This document shows positions 4,760 to 16,800 of a DNA stretch of 64,000 nt, one piece after another. Below the pieces are notes generated by a model. The model had not been told where the DNA came from, made no database searches, and worked only from the letters and a program-made list of their open reading frames with translations. This stretch comes from a bacterium (GTDB taxonomy: Bacteria > UBA8248). The DNA lies in contig OZ241996.1 of assembly GCA_965204535.1 (NCBI GenBank), forward strand, positions 992,001 through 1,056,000, in the 5' to 3' direction. Numbering within the stretch: the first letter of the stretch is position 1; each line of letters begins with the position of its first letter. A program made the translations under genes and the position numbers.

Positions 4760-5905
4760 TTAGGATTTTCTCTTGAGTTGCACCCTTTTGCTGCCTGTCC
4801 CCTCGCTCTGAGCCTCGCCCTTGCGGCGGTGGCGGATGAGTTCGGCGACGATGGCGACCCCGATCTCGCCCGGTGTGTCGGCGCCGATGTCGAGGCCGAT
4901 GGGCGCATGGACGCGCTCGATGAGTTCGCCTCTGGCGTAGCCCTTGTCCTGGAGGTGGCGATAGGTGAGCAGCACCTTGCTTTTCGAGCCAATCATCCCG
5001 ATGTAGCGCGCGTCTGTCTTCATGGCCCATTCGAGGACGACTTCGTCGTTCGAATGGCCTCTGGTGATGATGGCCAGATAGTCGGACTCGTCGACCGGGA
5101 TTTTCTCGAAAATCTCGGGGAATTCCCCCACAAAGAACGATTCCGCCATCGGGAAGCGCTCCTTGTTGGCGAACGAGGGCCGATCCTCGACGATCGAGAC
5201 CCGGAAGCCGGCGAGATAGGCCGCCTGCGCGACGCAGAACGACACGTGCCCTCCGCCGAAAATATAGACGAGCGGCTGGCCGGATATGGGTTCGACGAAA
5301 ATTTCGGTTGCGTCCGTGAGGGTCGAGCGCTTTTCTCCCGCGCGCGCGGCGTCCCTGTTGAACTGCATGAGGGTGGGACTGCCGTTTCGGATGATTTGCG
5401 TGCTCTCCGCCCAGATTTCCGTTGAATAGTCGGGAATCTCGCCCACGGCGCTGCCGTCGCGCCGGAAGAGCATCTTTCTGGCCTCCGGCGCCGGGACGTC
5501 GAGATCGCCCGGCTGAACAATGGTCGCCAGCGCAGCGCTGCCGCCCTGGTTTCTGATGCGGTTGATCTCGTCGAGCAACTCTTCCTGAAACGCCTGGAAG
5601 GGCTCCACGAGTATCTCCACCACGCCGCCGCAGATATGGCCGCTGTCTTCGGCTTCCTGCTGGGTGAGGTCGAACCGGAGCTTTTCTGGTTCGCCTGTCT
5701 CGAGGACGCTCATCGCGGTTTCCCACACCTCAGCTTCGAGGCAGCCGCCCCCGACGGTGCCCTCCGTACTGCCGTCCTCACGCACGAGCATCTTCGCGTC
5801 GCCGCTCATGGGCGCGGACCCCTTGCGGGCCACGACGGTGGCGAGCGCGCCGCTCTGGCCGTCTTCCTTGAGTTTCGCCATTTCCCTGAATACGTCCTTG
5901 CTCAT
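4760..5905 (-). CDS. xdhC: XdhC/CoxF family molybdenum cofactor chaperone
   Basis: GTVGGGCLE, ICGG, IFGGGHV, TRGHSND, YIGMIGS, APIGLDIGADTPGEI. Confidence 0.92.
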   Translation of the reverse strand: MSKDVFREMAKLKEDGQSGALATVVARKGSAPMSGDAKMLVREDGSTEGTVGGGCLEAEVWETAMSVLETGEPEKLRFDLTQQEAEDSGHICGGVVEILVEPFQAFQEELLDEINRIRNQGGSAALATIVQPGDLDVPAPEARKMLFRRDGSAVGEIPDYSTEIWAESTQIIRNGSPTLMQFNRDAARAGEKRSTLTDATEIFVEPISGQPLVYIFGGGHVSFCVAQAAYLAGFRVSIVEDRPSFANKERFPMAESFFVGEFPEIFEKIPVDESDYLAIITRGHSNDEVVLEWAMKTDARYIGMIGSKSKVLLTYRHLQDKGYARGELIERVHAPIGLDIGADTPGEIGVAIVAELIRHRRKGEAQSEGTGSKRVQLKRKS

Positions 5906-5936
5906 TCCTTGCTCCGCCTACGTGAAGTGATGATCG

Positions 5937-6764
5937 CTACGCATCCGGTGCGATCCGCATGAATACTTCACATTCGTTGTTCATACAAGACGTGAAGAGG
6001 ATGCCGTCCGCCGGACCATGAGGCTTTCCGGCCAGTTCCCATATAGTATAGGCCGTTTTTTCGAGTTTTTCCAGCGAAGTTTCCATATCCGCCTTGTTGA
6101 TGACGATCCACTTCCGCGCGCCCTCCCCGGCCTTGTGAAAAAGACCGAAAGGGTGTGCGCACAGCTTTCCTACGGCCTCGGCCGTTATCTCCTCGCCGAT
6201 CTGCAGGCTGCAAATGTGCGAAAGCGCCTCGGGACGAAAGACGTGTGTCTGATTCAAGGGCGCGCCCAGCGCGTCCAGCCCCACGACGCCCAGCACGGCG
6301 TCGAGATTTTCGGGCAGTACGGGCTCATCGGGACCCGGGGCCTTGATGGGCAGTCTTCTCGCGCCGTCCGCCTCGATGAGCGTGAGGGAATTGCCCAGCG
6401 TGAAGTGGGCAATTTCCGAAGGCATAAAACCGCTCAGCTTCATGCGTTGCTCGTTCTCCAGACCCGGAACCGGGGCTTTCCCCTCGCGGCGGCGTGCGAA
6501 CCACGAGACGCCGCATGCGTCCATGTAGGGGCGGAGGTTCTTTCCGAGCGTCGCGGCGTCGCCCAGGGCGAGCCCGAGCCCTTCCTCGGGCAGCGGCGCG
6601 AAAATCTTCGTTGTCGTCGTGAGAATCGCAGGTTTTCCGGATTGCGCATGAAACTGCCTGGCGATGGCCGTCAGCAGGCTCGTTTTTCCGCCTCCGCCAA
6701 CCGCCGCGACGCTCTGGCCAGGCCCGACCCCGAGGGAGCGAACGATGTCGTCTTCCGCTACCAA
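5937..6764 (-). CDS. yqeC: Selenium cofactor biosynthesis protein YqeC
   Basis: VGGGGKTSLL, TTTTKI, IEADGARRLPIKAP..EP; probable TTG start at 6764 after GGAGAG, overlapping the VWA stop. The 525-aa ORF-track call is over-extended. Confidence 0.85.
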   Translation of the reverse strand: MVAEDDIVRSLGVGPGQSVAAVGGGGKTSLLTAIARQFHAQSGKPAILTTTTKIFAPLPEEGLGLALGDAATLGKNLRPYMDACGVSWFARRREGKAPVPGLENEQRMKLSGFMPSEIAHFTLGNSLTLIEADGARRLPIKAPGPDEPVLPENLDAVLGVVGLDALGAPLNQTHVFRPEALSHICSLQIGEEITAEAVGKLCAHPFGLFHKAGEGARKWIVINKADMETSLEKLEKTAYTIWELAGKPHGPADGILFTSCMNNECEVFMRIAPDA

Positions 6765-8530
6765 GTGCGGCTCTCCATGCCGCCGAGCAGTTCGCGCCTG
6801 AGGATGTTCACGAGTTCGGTGGAAAGCTGGGAGAGGTCCTGCACCACGATGTGGTTGGGGTAGATCTGCTCGACGAATGGGTCCACCACGCCGACGCCGA
6901 TGACGCGGACGCCCAGCTTTTGCAGCCGGTTCACCGTGTTCACGAGGTGGGTCGCATCCCCGTTGGGCTGGCCGTCCGAGGTGATGATGATGATTTTCTC
7001 CTCCTCGGGCCGCTGGATGAGCCTGCGGTAGGCGAAGAGCAGGTGTTCTTCGTCCCAGTTGTTGAAGCGCGGATATATGTTGACGAGCCTGTTCTTGACC
7101 TGGGCGAATTGATCCTCGAAACCCTTGTAGACGCGGTGCTGCAGCGGCGAGTGCCGGATGTGGCGGAACTTGAACGCGGGGATGTGGCCCAGGGCCGCCG
7201 CCATGGCGGCTTCCGAACTCTCGGTGGAATAGCCGATGACCTCGAAGGGCACGTCGAGGCGGTCGAGCGCTTCGGCGAAGAATATGGTCGCCTCTCTGGC
7301 GGCCATGTATTTCGACTCGCGGTTCATGCTGCCGCTCTCGTCCACGAGCAGCGTGAAGCATACGTCGAGCTTCTCGGGCTCTTCTCTTCGGTGGAAGAGG
7401 TGGAATTTCCCCAGGCGCTGTTTCCACAATTTCGGGAGGTTCAGCTTGCCCGAGCGGTGCGAGCCGCTGTAGCGGGTGTAGGTTCTCTCCTGGATAATTT
7501 GCATGAGCTTCCACACCAGCACCTTGATGTGGCTGCCCGCATTGTCGATGACCGCCGCGTATTCCTCTGCCTTGCCCTCGGGCGGCAACACGATAGTGCG
7601 CTCATCAGGATGCTCGGCGGTGGGGTGGATTTCCTTCTTGTTCCCTTCGAGCTCGAACCAGGGGGCGGCCCAGTGCCCGAGCGCCGCGAGTTCCTCGGGA
7701 CTGAGTTCGACCTGCTCGCCCACGTCTTCCTCGTCGATTTCCTCGGCCGCTTCGGGGTGGAGCATCTCGAGCGCTTCGTCGTCGTCGCCCTCCAGGTTCT
7801 GGCTCTCGATCTTCTGCAGAATTTCTTCGGGGATTTCCGATAAATCCTGATCCTCGCTCATCCGGGAGAGTTGTTCTTCGGTGAGATAGCGCTGGATGGC
7901 GTCGTAAATCTCGTTGGCGCAATCGAAGGCGGTTTTGGGGTCATCGGCGGCGCAGGCGCGGTCAATCAGCGGGATGAGCCTGTGGAAAATCTGGACGACG
8001 GCGGAATCGAACCAGGCCGCCGGCAAGTCTCCGGGCCTGGAAGAAGGGACGCCGGGCGTCTGCCCGATCCCGGCGAGGTAGATTCCCCACTGAATCTGGA
8101 GAAACAAGGGGAGTTGTCCGCTCATCTGGTTGCGCTCGGCCGCCTCGATGGCCGGGAGGATGAAGGCCCTGAAATTCTTCTTGGTGCCGGGCAACGATTC
8201 CGCGAGGCGGTTTTCGCACCGCGCATCCTCGAGCGTGTGCCAGATGTGGAAAAGACCCGGCCTCTCGCGGTTGGCGAGCGCGGCGCGCCCCGCCCAGCGG
8301 AACGTGCCGTGGATCTTGTGGGCCACCTCGATGAGCGTCATGCCCTTTTGGAATCTCAAGACATGCTCGTCGTTGAGTCCGCCGCCCAGGCGCGCCAGGG
8401 TTTGTTCGGGGTCTTCGACGTGGATGGCGTCTTCGCCGTTCTTCGCCTTGGGGCCGAAGTTCAGGGCGAGGTCGTAATCGTGCGCGGTTACCTGCGCGAG
8501 CGCTTCGAGACGGGCGCGTCGGCGTTCCAT
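6758..8530 (-). CDS. VWA (MIDAS) domain protein, CobT/NorD/CbbO-like partner of MoxR ATPase
   Basis: LEDAR.E N-terminal motif, acidic linker, LLVDESGSM (DxSxS) and ITSDGQP. Confidence 0.85.
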   Translation of the reverse strand: MERRRARLEALAQVTAHDYDLALNFGPKAKNGEDAIHVEDPEQTLARLGGGLNDEHVLRFQKGMTLIEVAHKIHGTFRWAGRAALANRERPGLFHIWHTLEDARCENRLAESLPGTKKNFRAFILPAIEAAERNQMSGQLPLFLQIQWGIYLAGIGQTPGVPSSRPGDLPAAWFDSAVVQIFHRLIPLIDRACAADDPKTAFDCANEIYDAIQRYLTEEQLSRMSEDQDLSEIPEEILQKIESQNLEGDDDEALEMLHPEAAEEIDEEDVGEQVELSPEELAALGHWAAPWFELEGNKKEIHPTAEHPDERTIVLPPEGKAEEYAAVIDNAGSHIKVLVWKLMQIIQERTYTRYSGSHRSGKLNLPKLWKQRLGKFHLFHRREEPEKLDVCFTLLVDESGSMNRESKYMAAREATIFFAEALDRLDVPFEVIGYSTESSEAAMAAALGHIPAFKFRHIRHSPLQHRVYKGFEDQFAQVKNRLVNIYPRFNNWDEEHLLFAYRRLIQRPEEEKIIIITSDGQPNGDATHLVNTVNRLQKLGVRVIGVGVVDPFVEQIYPNHIVVQDLSQLSTELVNILRRELLGGMESRTW

Positions 8531-8544
8531 GCCTCATCTCCCGG

Positions 8545-9429
8545 CTAGAAGTGGTTGTCTACGATGTCCTCGAGCACTTTGGCGTCGAAAGAGTTGACCT
8601 TGCTGAAGATGGTCGAGACGGCGGCTTCCATGGGGTCGAACTGCGCCGCCATGCGCGCCCAGTCGATGAGGCGCCGGGTGCTGAACGTGCAGAACACCTT
8701 TTCGTTCTGCATGGCCTCGCGCACGTCGTGGCCCACGCGCACCATGCGCTTGATGAGCTCCTCATCGTTGTTCCCGCTCTGCTGCATGATGACCTCGACC
8801 TCCGCGTCGAAGGGCAGGTAGTCCATCTTCACGGTAACCGGGAAGCGGTCCAGAAGCGCCTCGTTCAGGGGCTTGGTGCCGCCGTATCTGCGGTCCTCGT
8901 GCGGGTTCATGCTGGCGAAAAGCCTGAAGTTCGGATGGGGTTTGACGATGCGGCCGTCGTATTCCGACAAGACGATCATCCGGTCGTCATCGAGCAGGCT
9001 GTGCAGGCAAAAGGCGATTTCGGGCAGGCACGCGTTGATCTCGTCGATGAGCAGCCAGTCGCCCGATTGCATGGCGTCGACCAGAATGCCGTTCACCCAG
9101 TAGGTGCCCTGTTCGTTGATCATCAGCTTGCCCACGAACTCGTCGACCGTTGTCATGCCGTTCAGGTTCACGCGCCGGAAGCCGTTGTTCGTCATGTGGG
9201 CGAGGTGGCGCACCGAGAGAGTCTTGCCGACGCCGGTCTCCCCGACGAGGAGAGCGGGGAGGTTCCTGCTTACCGCCCATGCGATGCGCTCGAGCGCGTC
9301 TCCCGCCGCCAGATAGAATTGCGCCGGGGGAACGAAGGAGTTCCCGTTGGTCTCGTTGATGGGGATTTCGCTGCGCCCGATCCGGTAGGTTCCGTTTTTC
9401 ACCGTTTCGGTCAAGATTTCGGTAGTCAA
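8545..9429 (-). CDS. MoxR-family AAA+ ATPase (CbbQ/NirQ/NorQ-like)
   Basis: Walker A GETGVGKT, Walker B LLIDEIN, ASMNP, ALLDRF, STRRL; TTG start overlaps yqeB stop (TTGA). Confidence 0.9.
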   Translation of the reverse strand: MTTEILTETVKNGTYRIGRSEIPINETNGNSFVPPAQFYLAAGDALERIAWAVSRNLPALLVGETGVGKTLSVRHLAHMTNNGFRRVNLNGMTTVDEFVGKLMINEQGTYWVNGILVDAMQSGDWLLIDEINACLPEIAFCLHSLLDDDRMIVLSEYDGRIVKPHPNFRLFASMNPHEDRRYGGTKPLNEALLDRFPVTVKMDYLPFDAEVEVIMQQSGNNDEELIKRMVRVGHDVREAMQNEKVFCTFSTRRLIDWARMAAQFDPMEAAVSTIFSKVNSFDAKVLEDIVDNHF

Positions 9430-10280
9430 TTCGCATACTCCATGGCAGAAACGCCGAACAGAAACATCATGATGGCCTCGAGCGCGCCGCCTCCGATGGC
9501 GCGCGATTTATCCGATATCGTATGGCAATGGGCGGGCTCGGCCCTCGGGTCGACGTCGCCCACCTTGAAGCCGACAGGCACCTCGATGCCGTCTCTCAGC
9601 AGCCCCCGTAAAACGCCGTCGATGGCGGAGGTCACTTCCGCGCCGTCCACGCGGGCGACGGCCTCTCCCGCCCGCACCATGTCGCCTATCCCGGCGATGG
9701 AGGTGAAGACGCCTGCTTTGGGCGCACGCAGCAGCCGTTCGGTGGTGTAGCCGCCGATGGGGCCCGGAACGCCCGTGTTGGGTTTCGCGCCGCCTTCCAG
9801 TATGACCCTTCCCAGATCGTGTCCCCGGGAGGTCTCGACCACGGCGTGGCAATCGACGCCCGCTGTGAAGCCCGGCCCGAGGCCGACGACGACCTCCGCG
9901 TTGTCGATGCGCGTGCCGAGGTTTCGCTTCGCCAGAATCGCATCGACCACGACGGCGGGCCGGAGGTGATCGATCACCTCGGCTTGAGGGTCCACCATTA
10001 CCGGAATCGAGCCCGCCTCCAGAATGGCGCGCGCGCTCTGTGCTTTCTCCATTGGTGTCTTGCCGTCCGCCCGGGCGGAGCTCACGCCCTCCACTCTCCA
10101 CTCATCCGCATACAGACACTCGGCGAACGAGACGGTGCGCCTCACCATCGTGGGGTTTTCGATTTCGGTGATCGCGACCGGAAAACCCGCGCGGTGCAAG
10201 CGGTGACACACGCCGGTGGCGAGGTCGCCGCCTCCTTTGACGAGTACGAGCGTCTCGGTAATGGACTTGCGGCTGCTCAT
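9426..10280 (-). CDS. yqeB: Selenium-dependent molybdenum cofactor biosynthesis protein YqeB
   Basis: VLVKGGGDLATGV..RL, VDAILAKRNLGT, ETSRGHDLG, KVGDVDPR, ISDKSRAIGGG; ATG at 10280. Confidence 0.9.
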   Translation of the reverse strand: MSSRKSITETLVLVKGGGDLATGVCHRLHRAGFPVAITEIENPTMVRRTVSFAECLYADEWRVEGVSSARADGKTPMEKAQSARAILEAGSIPVMVDPQAEVIDHLRPAVVVDAILAKRNLGTRIDNAEVVVGLGPGFTAGVDCHAVVETSRGHDLGRVILEGGAKPNTGVPGPIGGYTTERLLRAPKAGVFTSIAGIGDMVRAGEAVARVDGAEVTSAIDGVLRGLLRDGIEVPVGFKVGDVDPRAEPAHCHTISDKSRAIGGGALEAIMMFLFGVSAMEYAN

Positions 10281-10285
10281 CGCAT

Positions 10286-10678
10286 CTAGTCTTCCACGAA
10301 GGCGATCGCGTCGATCTCGATGAGCCACTCGGGTTTCGCCAGGCCGCTCACGATCAGGAGCGTGCTCGCCGGGTACGGCTCGTTGAAGTAGGTTTGCCGT
10401 ACCTCCATACATCCCGGGACATTTGCAGAGTCGGTGATATAGACGGTCAGGCGGATGATGTCCGCCATCCCGGCGCCCGCCGCTTCGAGCGCGGCCTTGA
10501 TGTTCTCGTACACCTGCCGGGTCTGGCCTCTGATATCGTCTCCTCCGACGGTGTTCCCATCTACGTCGACCGCCACCTGACCCGCCAGCATGATGAGATG
10601 TCCGTTCGATACCTTCCAGCCCGTTGAATACGCGGCGACCGGTTTCACCTTATCGGAATTGATCTGTTGTTTCGCCAT
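10286..10678 (-). CDS. RidA/YjgF family protein
   Basis: AGQV, PASTL..V..L...WLIEIDAIA; ATG at 10678 after GGGAG. Confidence 0.88.
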   Translation of the reverse strand: MAKQQINSDKVKPVAAYSTGWKVSNGHLIMLAGQVAVDVDGNTVGGDDIRGQTRQVYENIKAALEAAGAGMADIIRLTVYITDSANVPGCMEVRQTYFNEPYPASTLLIVSGLAKPEWLIEIDAIAFVED

Positions 10679-11297: not shown

Positions 11298-11897
11298 GTG
11301 GGGAAAATGCCAAAGTACGAGATAAGCGAAGTTTTAGGGAAAATAATGTGGCGATTTTGGCGTCACGGCTATTCTGCGACATCGATCAGAGATCTCGAGG
11401 AAGCGACGGGTCTCTTTCGAGGCAGTTTATACCACGCATTCGGCGATAAGCGTGAGATGTTCGTCCAGGCGCTCCACCATTACGACCAGCTCTATCGCAA
11501 AGCTCCCATCGAGGAACTCGAAAAGCATCCCTCGCCGCGCGAGGCGGTGCTGGCCGTTTTCGAAACCGCCGCCTCCGTCGCGGTGGAGGATGGTTTGCAA
11601 AACGGCTGTCTCGAAGTCAACGCCGCCCTGGAGCTTGGGGCGCACGACGAGGGGGTGGCTTCTTTCATTGCCGACGCTTTCGCCGGCATGTCGAAGTTCT
11701 TTTTCGCTTCTATCGAGCGGGGGCAGGCGCATGGGGAGATTTGCCCCGAAGTTGCTCCGGAGCAAACGGCGAAATCTCTACTCGGTCTGTTCCTCGGTCT
11801 GAGGGTGCTGTCGTGCGTTTCTCCCGACCGGAGCTTTCTGGAATCCGTCGTCGAACAGGCGAAAGCCCTCTTGCCGCCGCCTACCCCTGCTTCGTAG
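11298..11897 (+). CDS. TetR/AcrR family transcriptional regulator
   Basis: FWRHGYSATSIRDL..ATGL.RGSLYHAFGDK HTH; NGCL.VN. Confidence 0.9.
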   Translation: MGKMPKYEISEVLGKIMWRFWRHGYSATSIRDLEEATGLFRGSLYHAFGDKREMFVQALHHYDQLYRKAPIEELEKHPSPREAVLAVFETAASVAVEDGLQNGCLEVNAALELGAHDEGVASFIADAFAGMSKFFFASIERGQAHGEICPEVAPEQTAKSLLGLFLGLRVLSCVSPDRSFLESVVEQAKALLPPPTPAS

Positions 11898-11944: not shown

Positions 11945-13021
11945 TCAACCAATATCGATCTTCCGCGTCACGGAGCGCGTGGGGCCGAAGGTGGGCATGT
12001 AGCATGAATGCTTGCCGGCGCCGCCCGCCACGATGAGGAGCAAATCGTCCGGCTCGTCCAGAAGCGGGAGCTCGAAATCATCGTCGTCTTCGTGTTCGGC
12101 TATTTCCTCGCCCCAGGTCTGCATCCCCCACATGGCGCCGCGCTTTAGCTGGCGCACGGGCTTACGGGCGAGTTCGAAAATTCTCCCCTTCACGTCCGCT
12201 TTCGTGAGGCCGTCTCCCGCGATGGTCGCCGCGTGCTCGGGACCTAAGGCGAGAACCGGTTCTCCGCGCAGATAGAAGTTGTTGCACCCCATGATGGACA
12301 TCGTATCGGCGGCGGTGGCGAGAATCCCTTCCGCCGTGTGGCTTACGTGGTCGTTGATGTTGTGGGGTCCCTCGCAGCCCACGAGCGTCACCGCGCTCTC
12401 ATCGGGAGAAAGACCGCGCTCGACGTGCAGCGGCTCCCACGGGGAGGCCGACTCGTTCTCGGCGATGCAGAACGCGTATTTCGCGGGCGAGCCTTGCGTG
12501 GCGCGGTCCAGAACGCCCGGGCTCGCGCCGCCCACGTTCAGGAGCGTCAGGCGCATCGCGCGTCCAATCGTCGCGTTTGCCCGGTTGCCGGGGGCGAAGC
12601 ACCCGTACTCGGCGTTGAGACCGATTTCCTCGACGACGGGGCCGTTCACGATGATGAGGGGCGCCACCGGATGGGTCGTCGCCTGAATCGCATGGAGCGA
12701 GAATTCGGGTTCGAGCACCGCGCGGGCCGCCGCCGCCAGAACGGGCATGTATGCCGGAAGGCAACCGGCCATCACGGCGTTCACGGCGAGAACTTCCACC
12801 GTGATGACGCCCTGGCGAGGCGGCATAAGCCCGATTTCCGCATCGGGCGCGAGTCCTGCGCCCTCCACCATCCGGGCGACGCGCTCGGGCGTGGGGGGAA
12901 CGACGGGCAGGCCGTCGCCCCAGCCTCTCGCTTCGAGCAGGCGTGCCATCGCCTCGGGCGTGTCGCGCACCTTCACGCGCTCGCTCTCGAACATCAGATT
13001 TTCCTGAGAGTGGTCATTCAC
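11945..13021 (-). CDS. Conserved hypothetical protein, probable partner of the UGSC selenoprotein
   Basis: GWGDGLPVVPPT, AVNAVMAGC, GNRANATIGRA, AENE..SPW.PLHVERG, IVAGGAGKHS motifs; 12 bp after the UGSC gene. Confidence 0.75.
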   Translation of the reverse strand: MNDHSQENLMFESERVKVRDTPEAMARLLEARGWGDGLPVVPPTPERVARMVEGAGLAPDAEIGLMPPRQGVITVEVLAVNAVMAGCLPAYMPVLAAAARAVLEPEFSLHAIQATTHPVAPLIIVNGPVVEEIGLNAEYGCFAPGNRANATIGRAMRLTLLNVGGASPGVLDRATQGSPAKYAFCIAENESASPWEPLHVERGLSPDESAVTLVGCEGPHNINDHVSHTAEGILATAADTMSIMGCNNFYLRGEPVLALGPEHAATIAGDGLTKADVKGRIFELARKPVRQLKRGAMWGMQTWGEEIAEHEDDDDFELPLLDEPDDLLLIVAGGAGKHSCYMPTFGPTRSVTRKIDIG

Positions 13022-13033
13022 ATCGAAGCCCGC

Positions 13034-13642
13034 CTATGCGAAGAGCGCCTTGTGGCGCACGGTCTTGCGTGGCGGGACGTATTCGCGCTCGCGGTATTCT
13101 CGTCTGAGCGACTCCGCATCGCTCGTGAGGATGCGCCGAACCTCTTCCACCGCGCCGTCGCCCAAGGCGCGCGCTTGTTCGGGCGCGATGCCGCCGACCG
13201 GATGCGCCACGACGACTATGGGAAGGCCGGGCATCCCCAGCGCCGTTCTCTCGTTCGCGCCCAGGGCCGAGAATTCACTCGAGCAGAACGTGGCCGTCGG
13301 AACACCCGCTTTTTCCATCTCCACCGAGTCATGGATACTCCATGACGTGCAGCTCCCTCAGTCGCCCACCGCGCAGACGGCGACGTCCACCTGTTCGAGG
13401 AATTCCTCGAGGCGATCCTCAGGCAGGGTGGGGTTCGGCTTTCCCCAGCGGACGAAGCGCAGCGTCTCGTCCTCCTGGGCGAACAGCTCCTCGATCCGCT
13501 CGAGCAGGACGTCGGCGTTGGGCTTGTTGTTGTGGAAAAAGCCTATTTTAAGTCCCCCCAGGTCTTCGGGACGTTCCGCCAAGGGGTGGTCGCCCGCGCG
13601 GACGAAAGAGGTGGGTTGTAAGATTTCAATCGTCTGGCTCAT
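13034..13642 (-). CDS. UGSC-motif selenoprotein (202 aa, Sec at in-frame TGA 13360-13358)
   Basis: ORFs 13358-13642 and 13034-13324 are in frame. Reading through gives AVGD-U-GSCTSWSIHDSVEMEKAGVPT; SECIS-like hairpin follows the TGA. Confidence 0.88.
13328..13346 (-). promoter_or_regulatory. Bacterial SECIS-like hairpin
   Basis: GUCAUGGA-GUA-UCCAUGAC: perfect 8-bp stem starting 11 nt after the UGA, apical loop begins with G. Confidence 0.75.
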
Positions 13643-13670
13643 CTCGAATCTCCGTAATGGGGATGTTGGA

Positions 13671-14837
13671 CTACAAACTCAATAAATTCTGGGCGATGAC
13701 CATGCGCTGTATCTGGTTGGTCCCCTCGATAATCTGCAACTGCTTCGCGTCTCTCATGAACCGCTCGAGCGGATGGTCTTTCATGTAGCCCGCGCCGCCG
13801 AGCACCTGAACCCCGTCCACAGCGGCCTTCATGGCGGCGTCAGTAGCGTAGCATTTCGCGGCGCAGATGAAATGCACGTGTTCTTTCCGGTAGCGGCCAT
13901 TATCCACCATCGAGGCGGCGCGGTAAACGAGCATTCGGGCGGCTTCGGTTTCCATGAACATGTCGGCGAGCATGAACTGCACGGCCTGGTGCTGCGCGAT
14001 GGGCTTTCCGAAGGCCTCGCGCTCCTTGGCATAATTCGAGGCGTAATCGAGACACCCCTGCGCCAGACCCACGCCCCGCGCGCCGATGGCGGGCCGCGCC
14101 TGGTTGAAGCCGAGCATGGCCGTCTTGAAGCCGAGGCCGCGCTCGCCGATCATGTTCTCCAAGGGAACGCGCGAGTCTTCCAGGAACACCTCACAGGTCG
14201 GTATCCCCCGCATCCCCATCTTGCGTTCATGACGCCCCACGCGGAATGCGCCCCTGGGAACGATGAAGAACGATATGCCCTTCGCCCCCATCTCGGGTTC
14301 GGTTTTCGCCGCCACGGTGATGAAATCCGCGACGCTCGAACCCGTGCAGTAGCATTTCTGGCCGTTGATGACCCACGAATCGCCGTCCCGGACCGCCCTT
14401 GTCGATATGTTCGCGGCGTCAGAACCCGCGTGCGGCTCGGTGAGCGAGAAGGCGGGCCGCAAATCGCCTTTGGCGACGCCTCCGAGATAGGTTTTTTTCT
14501 GTTCCTCGCTTCCGCCGATGGCGACGGGCCGTGTGGCGAGCAGGTGGACGGAGAAGAAAAGAGGGGAGTTCGAGCAAAAGCGCGCCATCTGCTCGATGGC
14601 AACGCAGGTTTCGAGTATTCCGAGTCCCGCTCCACCATAGGCTTCGGGAACGTAGAGGCCGAGAAGATCGTGGGATTTTAAGAGCTGAAATATGTCTTCG
14701 GGGTATTCGTCGTTCTCGTCGACCGCAGCGGCGCATGGCGCGACGTGGCGTCGGCTCAGTTCATAAACCGTCTCGGCCAGCATCCGCTGGGCCGGTGTGA
14801 GTTCGAACGCGCCCCCGGTATCCACCTTACCCGTCAC
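13671..14837 (-). CDS. Acyl-CoA dehydrogenase
   Basis: FSLTEPHAGSDA, INGQK, KMGMRG, RDAKQLQIIEGTNQIQR. Confidence 0.93.
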   Translation of the reverse strand: MTGKVDTGGAFELTPAQRMLAETVYELSRRHVAPCAAAVDENDEYPEDIFQLLKSHDLLGLYVPEAYGGAGLGILETCVAIEQMARFCSNSPLFFSVHLLATRPVAIGGSEEQKKTYLGGVAKGDLRPAFSLTEPHAGSDAANISTRAVRDGDSWVINGQKCYCTGSSVADFITVAAKTEPEMGAKGISFFIVPRGAFRVGRHERKMGMRGIPTCEVFLEDSRVPLENMIGERGLGFKTAMLGFNQARPAIGARGVGLAQGCLDYASNYAKEREAFGKPIAQHQAVQFMLADMFMETEAARMLVYRAASMVDNGRYRKEHVHFICAAKCYATDAAMKAAVDGVQVLGGAGYMKDHPLERFMRDAKQLQIIEGTNQIQRMVIAQNLLSL

Positions 14838-14850
14838 CCCCGGATTGCCC

Positions 14851-16023
14851 CTAGAGGCCGAGCAGGTTCCGGGCGATGATCATCCGCTGAATCTGGCTCG
14901 TTCCCTCGACGATCTGGATTTGCTTGGCGTCGCGCATGAACCGCTCGAGCGGGTGGTCCTTCATGTAGCCCGCCCCGCCGAGGACCTGGATGCTGTCTAT
15001 CGCGCACTTCATCGCCATGTCGGCCGCGTAGGTCTTGGCCGTCGAGAAATACCTGGCGTTCTCCTTGCCTATCTGGCCGGCGTCCACCAGGGCCGCCGCG
15101 CGGTAGACGAGCAGCCGCGCCGCCTCGATGTCCATGAACATGTCGGCGAGCATGAACTGCACGGCCTGGTGTTGGGCGATGGGCTTGCCGAACGCCTCGC
15201 GCTCCTTGGCGTAGTTCGCCGCGTAGTCGAGACACCCCTGCGCGAGACCCACCGCGCGCGAGCCGATGGCGGGGCGCATCTGGTTGAAGCCCACCATCGC
15301 GGTCTTGAAGCCCCCGTTCAACTCGCCCACCTGGTTCTCGATCGGGATGGCCACGTTGTCGAGATTGAGCATGCAGGTGGCGACCCCCCGCATCCCCATC
15401 TTGCACTCGTGCTTGGCGATGCTGAAGCCCGGCGCGTCGGTGGGCACGATGTAGTAGGTGATGCCGCGCGTGCCCGCGTGGGGGTCGGTCTTGGCGGCCA
15501 CGGTGATGAAGTCCGCCTTGTCGGGCCCCGTGCAGAAGCACTTCGTGCCGTTGATGACCCACTCATCACCCTCCTTGACGGCGCGCGTGCGGATGTTGCC
15601 GGCGTCGGAACCCGCGTGGGGTTCGGTGAGCGCGTAGGAGCCCCTGAGTTCGCCCTTCGCGAGGCCGGTCATGTAGTGGTCTTTCTGCTCCTGCGTGCCG
15701 CTTAAGTCGATGACGCGGCTCGAGAGCATGTTGAGCACGATGAACAGCGGCGAATTCGAGCAGACGCGCGCGATCTCCTCGATGGCGACGCACCCGCCCA
15801 GAAAGCCCATGCCGCCGCCCCCGTATTCTTCGGGGAAGAAGATGCCGAGCAGGCCGTATTCCTTTTGCAGCTGGTAGATGTCCTCGGGGTATTCCTCGTT
15901 CTCGTCGATGTCGGCGGCCCGCGGAGCGATGTAGCGCTCCGAAAGTTCGCGGACCGTCTGGCGGAGCATCTTCTGGGTTTCGTCGAGGTCGAATTGCAGC
16001 GTGGTTTCCGTTTGCAGGCTCAT
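14851..16023 (-). CDS. Acyl-CoA dehydrogenase (paralog of the adjacent gene)
   Basis: YALTEPHAGSDA, INGTK, KMGMRG, RDAKQIQIVEGTSQIQR; ATG at 16023 after GGAG. Confidence 0.93.
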   Translation of the reverse strand: MSLQTETTLQFDLDETQKMLRQTVRELSERYIAPRAADIDENEEYPEDIYQLQKEYGLLGIFFPEEYGGGGMGFLGGCVAIEEIARVCSNSPLFIVLNMLSSRVIDLSGTQEQKDHYMTGLAKGELRGSYALTEPHAGSDAGNIRTRAVKEGDEWVINGTKCFCTGPDKADFITVAAKTDPHAGTRGITYYIVPTDAPGFSIAKHECKMGMRGVATCMLNLDNVAIPIENQVGELNGGFKTAMVGFNQMRPAIGSRAVGLAQGCLDYAANYAKEREAFGKPIAQHQAVQFMLADMFMDIEAARLLVYRAAALVDAGQIGKENARYFSTAKTYAADMAMKCAIDSIQVLGGAGYMKDHPLERFMRDAKQIQIVEGTSQIQRMIIARNLLGL

Positions 16024-16146: not shown

Positions 16147-16407
16147 CTAACGGTAGATGTCTTTTCGGTGCCCGATGTCGAGAATGGTGATTATAGAGCG
16201 GCCCTCAAGAGCATACAAAATCCGGTAATCCCCCGATCGTATCCTGTATACATCGCTCGAAATCCCGCGGACTCTCGTTCCTCCATGCGCTTCTGCGTCC
16301 GCCAATCTGTCAATCTTGTTCCTTATCTGTCGCTTCAGTTTTTTGGTCGGGAGTTTTTCAAGAGCATGTATCGCTCTATCCGTATACCGAATTTCGGACG
16401 GATTCAC
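16147..16407 (-). CDS. RelE/ParE family toxin
   Basis: YRIRSGDYRILY...ILDIGHRKDIYR; GTG start overlaps the antitoxin stop (TAGTG). Confidence 0.88.
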   Translation of the reverse strand: MNPSEIRYTDRAIHALEKLPTKKLKRQIRNKIDRLADAEAHGGTRVRGISSDVYRIRSGDYRILYALEGRSIITILDIGHRKDIYR

Positions 16408-16586
16408 TACTCGGTGATGCGATCAAGGGTCTCGGTTAATTCTTGTCCCGATACGAGTTTCTCACGCCCTTCTTCGATATCTCTCAGTATTTTCTCGGCC
16501 GTTTCGGCGTCGACGGTGTCTTCGAACTCTCCGGTTCCCTCGTGGTCCGCGACATCTTCAAGATTTTTCGCGACGTTCCGGCCCAT
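16407..16586 (-). CDS. Small acidic putative antitoxin
   Basis: 59 aa, acidic, coupled upstream of relE; AAGGAG RBS before ATG 16586. Confidence 0.7.
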   Translation of the reverse strand: MGRNVAKNLEDVADHEGTGEFEDTVDAETAEKILRDIEEGREKLVSGQELTETLDRITE

Positions 16587-16800
16587 CTCGTTTCTCCTTG
16601 TCCATGGGTATTCGCAATATAAATACATCGCTTTCGCTTTGTCAATTTTGCGTTGATTTGCACGGGAGGCATTTCATCCCTCTCGCAGCGATTGCGCCTC
16701 AACGCTTACGGGGGAATAATGTCCCGGATCCAATTTAGTTCGCTTAGGCGTTCGCCGAACCTCTCGACGTGCGCCCCGTTTCGATGGAGGAGTTTTGCGC

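Follow-up and report, generated by a model that had tools for sequence, protein, structure and literature searches.

A UGSC-family selenoprotein and its partner protein in a UBA8248 bacterium: a predicted two-subunit reductive selenoenzyme

Introduction

The UGSC selenoprotein family and its fusion UGSC/Unknown_1 are already published. As far as the available text of the sources goes, the family is the fifth most abundant one in the selenoprotein table of the GOS ocean survey, with 255 sequences (PMC2398784), and is treated as a likely thioredoxin-fold protein with function unassigned (PMC2398784, PMC13188914); a 2026 review still lists it as uncharacterised. Here we describe a member encoded in a 64,000-nucleotide stretch of a bacterial genome (GTDB lineage Bacteria; UBA8248; assembly GCA_965204535.1, contig OZ241996.1, positions 992,001 to 1,056,000 of the forward strand), hereafter the window, to which coordinates refer. 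In the window the UGSC gene is accompanied by two acyl-coenzyme A (acyl-CoA) dehydrogenase (ACAD) genes upstream and by a gene for a 358-aa partner protein downstream.

The selenoprotein B reductases, which act on D-proline (PrdB) or on glycine, sarcosine and betaine (GrdB/GrdF/GrdH; PF07355), have a two-component design, with a separate subunit and thiol/selenol re-reduction, to which we liken UGSC and its partner. In proline reductase, according to the accessible parts of PMC3091704 and PMC11229817, the selenocysteine (Sec) attacks the α-carbon of the substrate; a Cys then converts the selenoether into a Se-S bond, which a partner protein reduces again. The available part of PMC2398784 describes the same UGSC motif and Unknown_1, with a likely thioredoxin fold for the former and a limited range for the latter, whereas at our locus UGSC models as flavodoxin-like, and the partner is near-obligate, very widespread and found in fusions with thioredoxin reductase (TrxB).

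We propose that UGSC and the 358-aa protein constitute a predicted two-subunit selenoenzyme fed by NADPH and TrxB, which would reductively cleave a bond of a small organic substrate in the manner of selenoprotein B, with an unrelated substrate subunit. We hold this proposal to be about evenly poised between right and wrong; it is put forward because of the Sec coding signals, the UGSC membership, the pairing and fusion of the two proteins, the homology to GrdB/PrdB and the partner-TrxB fusions. With an obligate partner, PrdB/GrdB as mechanistic relative and TrxB as reductant, an orphan selenoprotein would become open to a defined assay, for which the operon offers one substrate hint, acyl-CoA. 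In the literature searched, which included few subscription papers, we found no published statement linking UGSC to GrdB/PrdB or the partner to TrxB, and the available text of a bioRxiv paper on new selenoprotein families does not mention UGSC.

Results

The UGA codon and its SECIS element

The UGSC gene (13034..13642, minus strand) is interrupted by an in-frame TGA at 13360-13358. Read as Sec, this codon joins a 94-aa open reading frame (ORF) to the downstream frame and yields a 202-aa protein, the predicted catalytic subunit, with the motif VCAVGD-U95-GSC98-TSWSIHD. The halves on either side of the TGA match positions 1-92 and 106-171 (of 172) of a single Pfam family, UGSC (PF24696; E 2.4e-47, 161.7 bits versus a cut-off of 25), and the protein also scores above the NCBIfam model NF041046 (138.2 bits versus a cut-off of 125). 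An original prediction, made from the sequence alone, had recognised both the split gene and its UGSC identity; both hold, the halves fitting one family and the full-length domain lying above the two curated cut-offs. It had also looked to the Sec machinery and to Cys homologs as checks. The tRNA-Sec gene (selC), selA, selB and selD are all found in this genome, selD with an in-frame TGA of its own, and of 147 homologs covering the Sec column 140 have Cys there, a count to be read with the bias of protein databases towards Cys forms in mind.

All eight UGSC paralogs of this genome carry TGA at the Sec column, and so does every listed match in 18/18 genus-mates, with 3-9 copies per genome. The presence of the TGA allele also follows that of SelB. 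Among 78 loci of many phyla, gathered by similarity to the partner, 50 had a testable genome, and SelB was present in 41/44 genomes with the TGA allele versus 1/6 with the Cys allele (Fisher p 1.5e-4).

Downstream of the UGA lies an 8-bp hairpin, GUCAUGGA-GUA-UCCAUGAC, at 13346-13328 on the minus strand. It begins 11 nt past the UGA, the spacing of the Escherichia coli fdhF selenocysteine insertion sequence (SECIS), and its loop starts with GU, 19 nt past the UGA; stem, spacing and a loop beginning with G are as originally noted. By folding alone the hairpin is just mildly better than shuffled sequences (z -2.1 for 31 nt and z -1.4 for 61 nt); the proof of a SECIS is comparative. In a set of 77 distinct UGSC genes with the TGA, 7.05 of the 8 stem pairs are retained on average, versus 4.78 +/- 0.16 in synonymous redraws, none of 1000 of which reaches that value, and one pair is compensatory, being G-C in 45 genes and C-G in 28. 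The loop starts with GU in 73/77 TGA genes versus 1/6 Cys-codon genes. For the Ser codon in the loop AGT is used 54 times and AGC not once, whereas the partner genes prefer AGC over AGT by 523 to 125. With a 3-nt loop, a stem of 8 bp, GU at the loop start, a spacing of 19 nt and -12.2 kcal/mol for the 31-nt segment, the element lies within the bacterial SECIS ranges given in the accessible part of PMC13188914 (loop 3-9 nt, stem 4-16 bp, G within the first two loop positions, spacing 16-37 nt, minimum free energy <= -7.5). On this comparative evidence the hairpin is a conserved bacterial SECIS, and the UGA is almost certainly read as Sec, because the sel machinery, the Cys homologs, the TGA paralogs, the conservation of the SECIS and the correlation with SelB all point to it.

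A near-obligate partner

The partner gene (11945..13021, minus strand) encodes the predicted substrate-binding subunit, a 358-aa protein with a DGLP motif and a conserved Cys87. The conserved gene is present as first described, although its start may lie at ATG 12994, which is preceded by AGGA, giving 349 rather than 358 aa. No Pfam or NCBIfam family matched the protein. It corresponds to Unknown_1 of PMC2398784 (2008), in the accessible part of which Fig S1A aligns UGSC/Unknown_1 fusions and displays the same family, including the Cys equivalent to Cys87.

The partner has at least 7999 homologs and thus represents a family of thousands of proteins, without a Pfam model and without a clear solved fold. 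At 64 of the 78 loci the distance between UGSC and the partner is at most 400 bp (UGSC upstream at 42, downstream at 22), and at 69 it is at most 1.5 kb; nine loci have no UGSC in the fetched stretch. Fusions of the two proteins account for 24 of 159 UGSC relatives, and 11 further in-frame fusions occur at eight loci; one fusion is encoded in this genome. The pairing of UGSC and partner is shown by these comparisons to be near-obligate, and direct binding of the two is likely, as judged from fusions and adjacency only. This genome has 15 partner copies versus eight UGSC copies, which suggests that one UGSC may serve several partners.

Two Cys columns of the partner exceed 80% conservation, Cys87 (117/122 diverse homologs) and Cys185 (99/122), while several His, Asp and Asn positions near Cys87 differ between paralogs. 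The structural model is confident (predicted local distance difference test, pLDDT, 92). Fold searches with it reached a best Z of 5.2, and Foldseek gave no match at E 0.001, which does not prove a new fold; a query of the ESM Atlas returned unnamed clusters only. The partner was also considered as a homolog of the pyruvoyl proprotein GrdE/PrdA (PF09338) and rejected, its profile scoring 0.3% against the GrdE of this genome in a profile comparison.

Several individual cassettes were recorded beside these counts. Four tandem partner genes at L008 (G000:C2:2311667-2321000) are followed by an opposite-strand molybdopterin enzyme gene and then by UGSC, two enoyl-CoA hydratases and an ACAD. At L013 (G000:C2:1790728-1793418) a ComA-like gene precedes a natural fusion of UGSC(U) with the partner, after which come another partner gene, an FAD oxidoreductase and an ATP-binding cassette transporter of the sugar type; ComA adjoins the cassette also at L068, with TauD. 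The partner ORF at L025:6004-8601 continues in frame into an acyl-CoA carboxyltransferase domain, and that at L077:1273-5433 has an N-terminal AhpC/TSA domain and runs into a Lon-like AAA gene, each being either a fusion or a missing stop. L038, L040, L054 and L085, from bacteria and a halophilic archaeon, share DUF6282 amidohydrolase-like genes located at the cassette or inside it.

Fold of UGSC and its relation to selenoprotein B

The UGSC protein models as a parallel flavodoxin/Rossmann-like α/β fold (pLDDT 92), probably not as a thioredoxin. The listed matches of the model are flavodoxin-, Rossmann- and periplasmic-binding-like, the best at Z 10.8 with a root-mean-square deviation (rmsd) of 3.3 over 130 aligned residues and none standing out, and no thioredoxin-fold entry is among them. 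Searches of PDB sequences with UGSC, the partner and both profiles gave nothing significant.

Against TIGR01917 (glycine reductase selenoprotein B) the protein gives E 0.003 and 16.4 bits, far under the cut-off of 602. A profile of 34 GrdB/PrdB-like genes, drawn from this genome and 30 other loci, was aligned with the UGSC profile in HHalign with the Sec column masked, and the result was a probability of 93.3% (E 2.7e-7, 91 columns) in a register that brings together U, C+3, E+15 and G+18. The score was 94.2% against the six long GrdB sequences and 81% against the 28 short PrdB-like ones, and an earlier motif-filtered GrdB/PrdB set of 29 sequences had given 87%. None of 11 control families exceeded 7.6%, and the reversed profile reached 0.2%. 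UGSC is thereby shown, at the level of profiles, to be remotely homologous to the Sec domain of GrdB/PrdB, with which it shares a strand-U-x-x-C-helix-E-x-x-G-x-P/A-T core in the same register. It differs from selenoprotein B in having no N-terminal GRDB domain, PF07355 being absent from all 113 UGSC proteins scanned, and in a partner that is not the pyruvoyl proprotein; because of these two differences UGSC stands outside the selenoprotein B family.

Elsewhere this genome encodes a true grdE-grdB pair (with a U-G-T-G motif) together with three prdB-like genes for selenoproteins that stand alone (L095-L099; G000:C2:70161-74289, 2666124, 2200145, 1607915). Matches to PF07355 were also obtained in 34 of the 50 other genomes tested. 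At the 78 partner loci themselves, no gene scored as PrdB/GrdB-like.

Fusions of the partner with thioredoxin reductase

TrxB is fused to 33 of the 56 partner relatives of 628-2000 aa. All 33 carry CxxC, and the two domain orders are represented by 31 and two proteins, respectively. Nine of the 56 carry UGSC and one a redoxin; redoxin fusions of the partner also occur, as does one AhpD/CMD fusion. The partner fusions suggest that the reductant is NADPH, delivered by TrxB.

The ACADs and the acyl-CoA neighbourhood

The four genes follow each other on the minus strand in the order ACAD1, ACAD2, UGSC and partner with gaps of 13, 28 and 12 bp, values identical to those on which the original prediction of a tight same-strand unit was based. 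ACAD1 (14851..16023, 390 aa; Pfam ACAD N/M/C) and ACAD2 (13671..14837, 388 aa; Pfam ACAD), which are 64% identical, resemble short-chain-type ACADs (closest solved structures 3pfd and 7w0j) in their full ACAD architecture and in the Glu of the C-terminal 'EG' motif, and differ from them by a Val or Ile in place of the Tyr before this Glu (IVEGT in ACAD1 versus IYEGT in PDB 3pfd). No NCBIfam equivalog scored above its cut-off for either.

A single-copy ACAD, 75-80% identical to ACAD1, lies upstream of UGSC in 6/6 genomes from three sister genera, hence the ACAD1/ACAD2 pair is a recent, genus-level tandem duplication. ACAD2 is internally deleted in two of 17 genus-mates. We conclude that the gene ancestrally next to the cassette in this family is ACAD1, ACAD2 being genus-specific and dispensable. 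The ACAD-UGSC-partner order is kept in 17 genus-mates, in which the unrelated flanks (DAHP synthase, amidohydrolase, yqeB) are equally kept.

Outside the family an ACAD occurs in six of 77 fetched stretches and directly adjoins the cassette at one of 68 UGSC-bearing loci. Enrichment of ACADs at foreign loci was rejected, four of the 50 loci for which genome counts were available having one versus 2.2 expected (P 0.18), an expectation that is a lower bound, the genome counts coming from the best 61 scored candidates. When enoyl-CoA hydratase and CoA-transferase III are counted with ACAD, one of the three families lies within 500 bp on the same strand at four of the eight cassettes of this genome (three of seven without this locus), compared with about 1% of random positions and 4/165 control catabolic genes; on this ground a subset of the paralogs, with the present one among them, may work on CoA thioesters. 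At the foreign loci the same families are found at 7/68 within 500 bp and 10/68 within 1.5 kb, mostly as CoA-transferase III and with two recurring subfamilies, and 58/68 have none of them within 1.5 kb, which speaks against a general acyl-CoA link. CoA-transferase III occurs at 8/50 loci versus 2.3-4.3 expected. All these neighbour counts ignore kinship and include loci that end at contig edges. Apart from these families, the genes beside the cassettes (192 ORFs scanned at foreign loci and 48 in this genome) encode a mixture of transporters, hydrolases and oxidoreductases. The presence of eight UGSC and 15 partner copies beside such varied transporters and catabolic genes fits substrate-specific paralogs.

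According to the original prediction, UGSC and its partner form a Sec-dependent enzyme or reductase acting on a CoA-thioester pathway fed by the two ACADs, which were to provide the functional handle. The Sec recoding, the UGSC identity and a probable reductase activity, the latter from the fusions of the two proteins to each other and of the partner to TrxB, survive the analysis. The handle finds no support in that form, given the single ACAD of the sister genera, the deletions in ACAD2, the equally syntenic flanks and the foreign count of 4/50 versus 2.2. Co-occurrence with ACADs, which had been suggested as a check, is likewise not enriched at foreign loci, although acyl-CoA enzymes as a group do accompany four of the eight cassettes of this genome. 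The ACADs are a local substrate hint and neither fixed partners nor part of the core enzyme.

Discussion

In the selenoenzyme that we propose, the partner would bind and orient the substrate, its variable pocket residues setting the specificity of each paralog. The Sec95 selenolate would attack the substrate and expel a leaving group, Cys98 would release the reduced product with formation of a Se-S bond, and TrxB/thioredoxin, possibly via Cys87 of the partner, would re-reduce this bond. In chemical terms, a CoA thioester could take over the part of the pyruvoyl Schiff base of PrdA and stabilise an α-carbanion, which would account for the acyl-CoA genes next to some paralogs. It is a tentative suggestion, less probable than the two-subunit enzyme itself, that the substrate or product of the present paralog is an acyl-CoA which ACAD1 handles next.

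Several results weigh against the proposal. The likeness of UGSC to GrdB/PrdB spans only about 90 residues round the Sec and is pairwise, and in a search of a whole library an E of 2.7e-7 would count as marginal; a query of the ESM Atlas with a natural Cys homolog of UGSC gave no usable named match outside PF24696. In addition, the partner does not resemble GrdE/PrdA (0.3%). There is no TrxB at this locus (one is encoded elsewhere in the genome) and one lies nearby at only two of the 78 loci; moreover, the TrxB fusions support a redox cycle and not C-X cleavage in particular.

Such a redox cycle would also suit a thiol-type reductase that acts on heteroatom bonds, as in peroxides, sulfoxides, N-oxides, disulfides or persulfides, and in which TrxB recycles the U-x-x-C motif and no carbon-heteroatom bond is cut. 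This is the broad redox function generally assumed for UGSC in the literature, and a reading that we regard as rather unlikely, though the least so of the alternatives weighed here. The UxxC motif itself agrees with it, as do the TrxB, redoxin and AhpD/CMD fusions of the partner, the redox role suggested for UGSC by Zhang and Gladyshev in the available part of PMC2398784, and a peroxidase activity of GrdB named in a title of the reference list of PMC3091704. However, the flavodoxin/Rossmann-like model, with no thioredoxin fold among its listed matches, would be unexpected, plain peroxidases need no obligate partner of about 350 aa, and the eight paralogs lie in catabolic and transport operons. 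In the strict first reading of the locus, the four genes make up one dedicated pathway and the whole UGSC family acts on acyl-CoA thioesters that ACADs make or use. The short gaps (12-28 bp), the position of ACAD1 directly upstream in four genera, the acyl-CoA enzymes at 4/8 cassettes versus 4/165 controls, the CoA-transferase III count at 50 loci and a partner-UGSC-CoA-transferase order in distant taxa (L011, L046, L053 and L090 at 51-86% identity; L075, L092) are in line with it, yet the foreign ACAD counts (4/50 versus 2.2 expected, 1/68 directly adjacent), the 58/68 loci free of the three families, the dispensable ACAD2, the lack of any ACAD fusion among the 56 long partner relatives and the unrelated genes beside the closest foreign partner homologs make it doubtful.

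It appears improbable to us that Sec and Cys bind a metal or Fe-S centre, or supply a covalent nucleophile, in a non-redox lyase or hydrolase. U95/C98 could for example form a cluster with Cys87 and Cys185 of the partner, as in class I fumarate hydratase, whose α part provides the best weak matches over most of the partner (Foldseek E 2e-3, template modelling score 0.25-0.29; Z 4.4, rmsd 5.5, 174 residues), and both Cys are well conserved, compared with three Fe-S cysteines in that enzyme; however, these matches are below significance, Cys185 varies, and the TrxB fusions point to a redox cycle. The genes downstream of the operon could imply that this paralog serves selenium handling for the maturation of a Se-dependent molybdenum hydroxylase. 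YqeB (TIGR03309 above its cut-off), YqeC and XdhC are encoded there, and yqeB directly follows the partner in five of six sister-genus loci, ridA standing between them in the sixth. The neighbours of foreign loci, though, showed no recurrent cluster of the yqeB kind, and the seven other cassettes of the genome have no such neighbours, so we think this very improbable. Finally, there is practically no probability that the TGA is a genuine stop or was misread in sequencing, with the gene split or dead: an in-frame GTG at 13324 could begin a 96-aa ORF, but the TGA stands at the same column in the genus-mates, the SECIS is under selection and the TGA allele correlates with SelB.

A wider reading can also be formulated, one that is speculative and, in our estimate, unlikely, although less so than the ACAD-linked pathway. 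UGSC and its partner would represent a large class, not yet described, of Stickland-like selenoenzymes outside clostridia, in which a new-fold subunit replaces the pyruvoyl protein, NADPH and TrxB drive the reaction and a CoA thioester, in place of a pyruvoyl Schiff base, activates the α-carbon in several subfamilies, including this one. If this were true, the Sec would strip an amine, a sulfonium or a halide from host-derived compounds before an ACAD feeds the carbon into β-oxidation.

Other features of the locus

A scan of the locus for promoters and terminators found no consensus site defining the operon. The RNA data, from metatranscriptomes of sponge and coral, consist only of assembled contigs of relatives that are about 90-93% alike. 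These relatives and a 69%-identical homolog, labelled Nitrospinota in its source, hint at the lineage. Two of the contigs cover both the UGA region and the end of ACAD2; assembled contigs show neither a single transcript nor strand nor level. Conserved antisense ORFs over the partner gene were taken as shadows of a conserved GC-rich gene and rejected.

Just upstream of ACAD1 a ParE toxin and a probable antitoxin (16147-16628, minus strand) are inserted, which only some genus-mates have, and ahead of this pair lies one strong promoter-like site (16645-16616, 11/12 sigma-70-like). A TetR-family regulator (11298-11897, plus strand) is convergent with the operon, just past the stop of the partner, in many but not all genus-mates. 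Downstream of the operon and on its strand follow yqeB, AAA, VWA, yqeC and xdhC (4760-10412, minus strand), a group concerned with Se-dependent molybdenum hydroxylase maturation.

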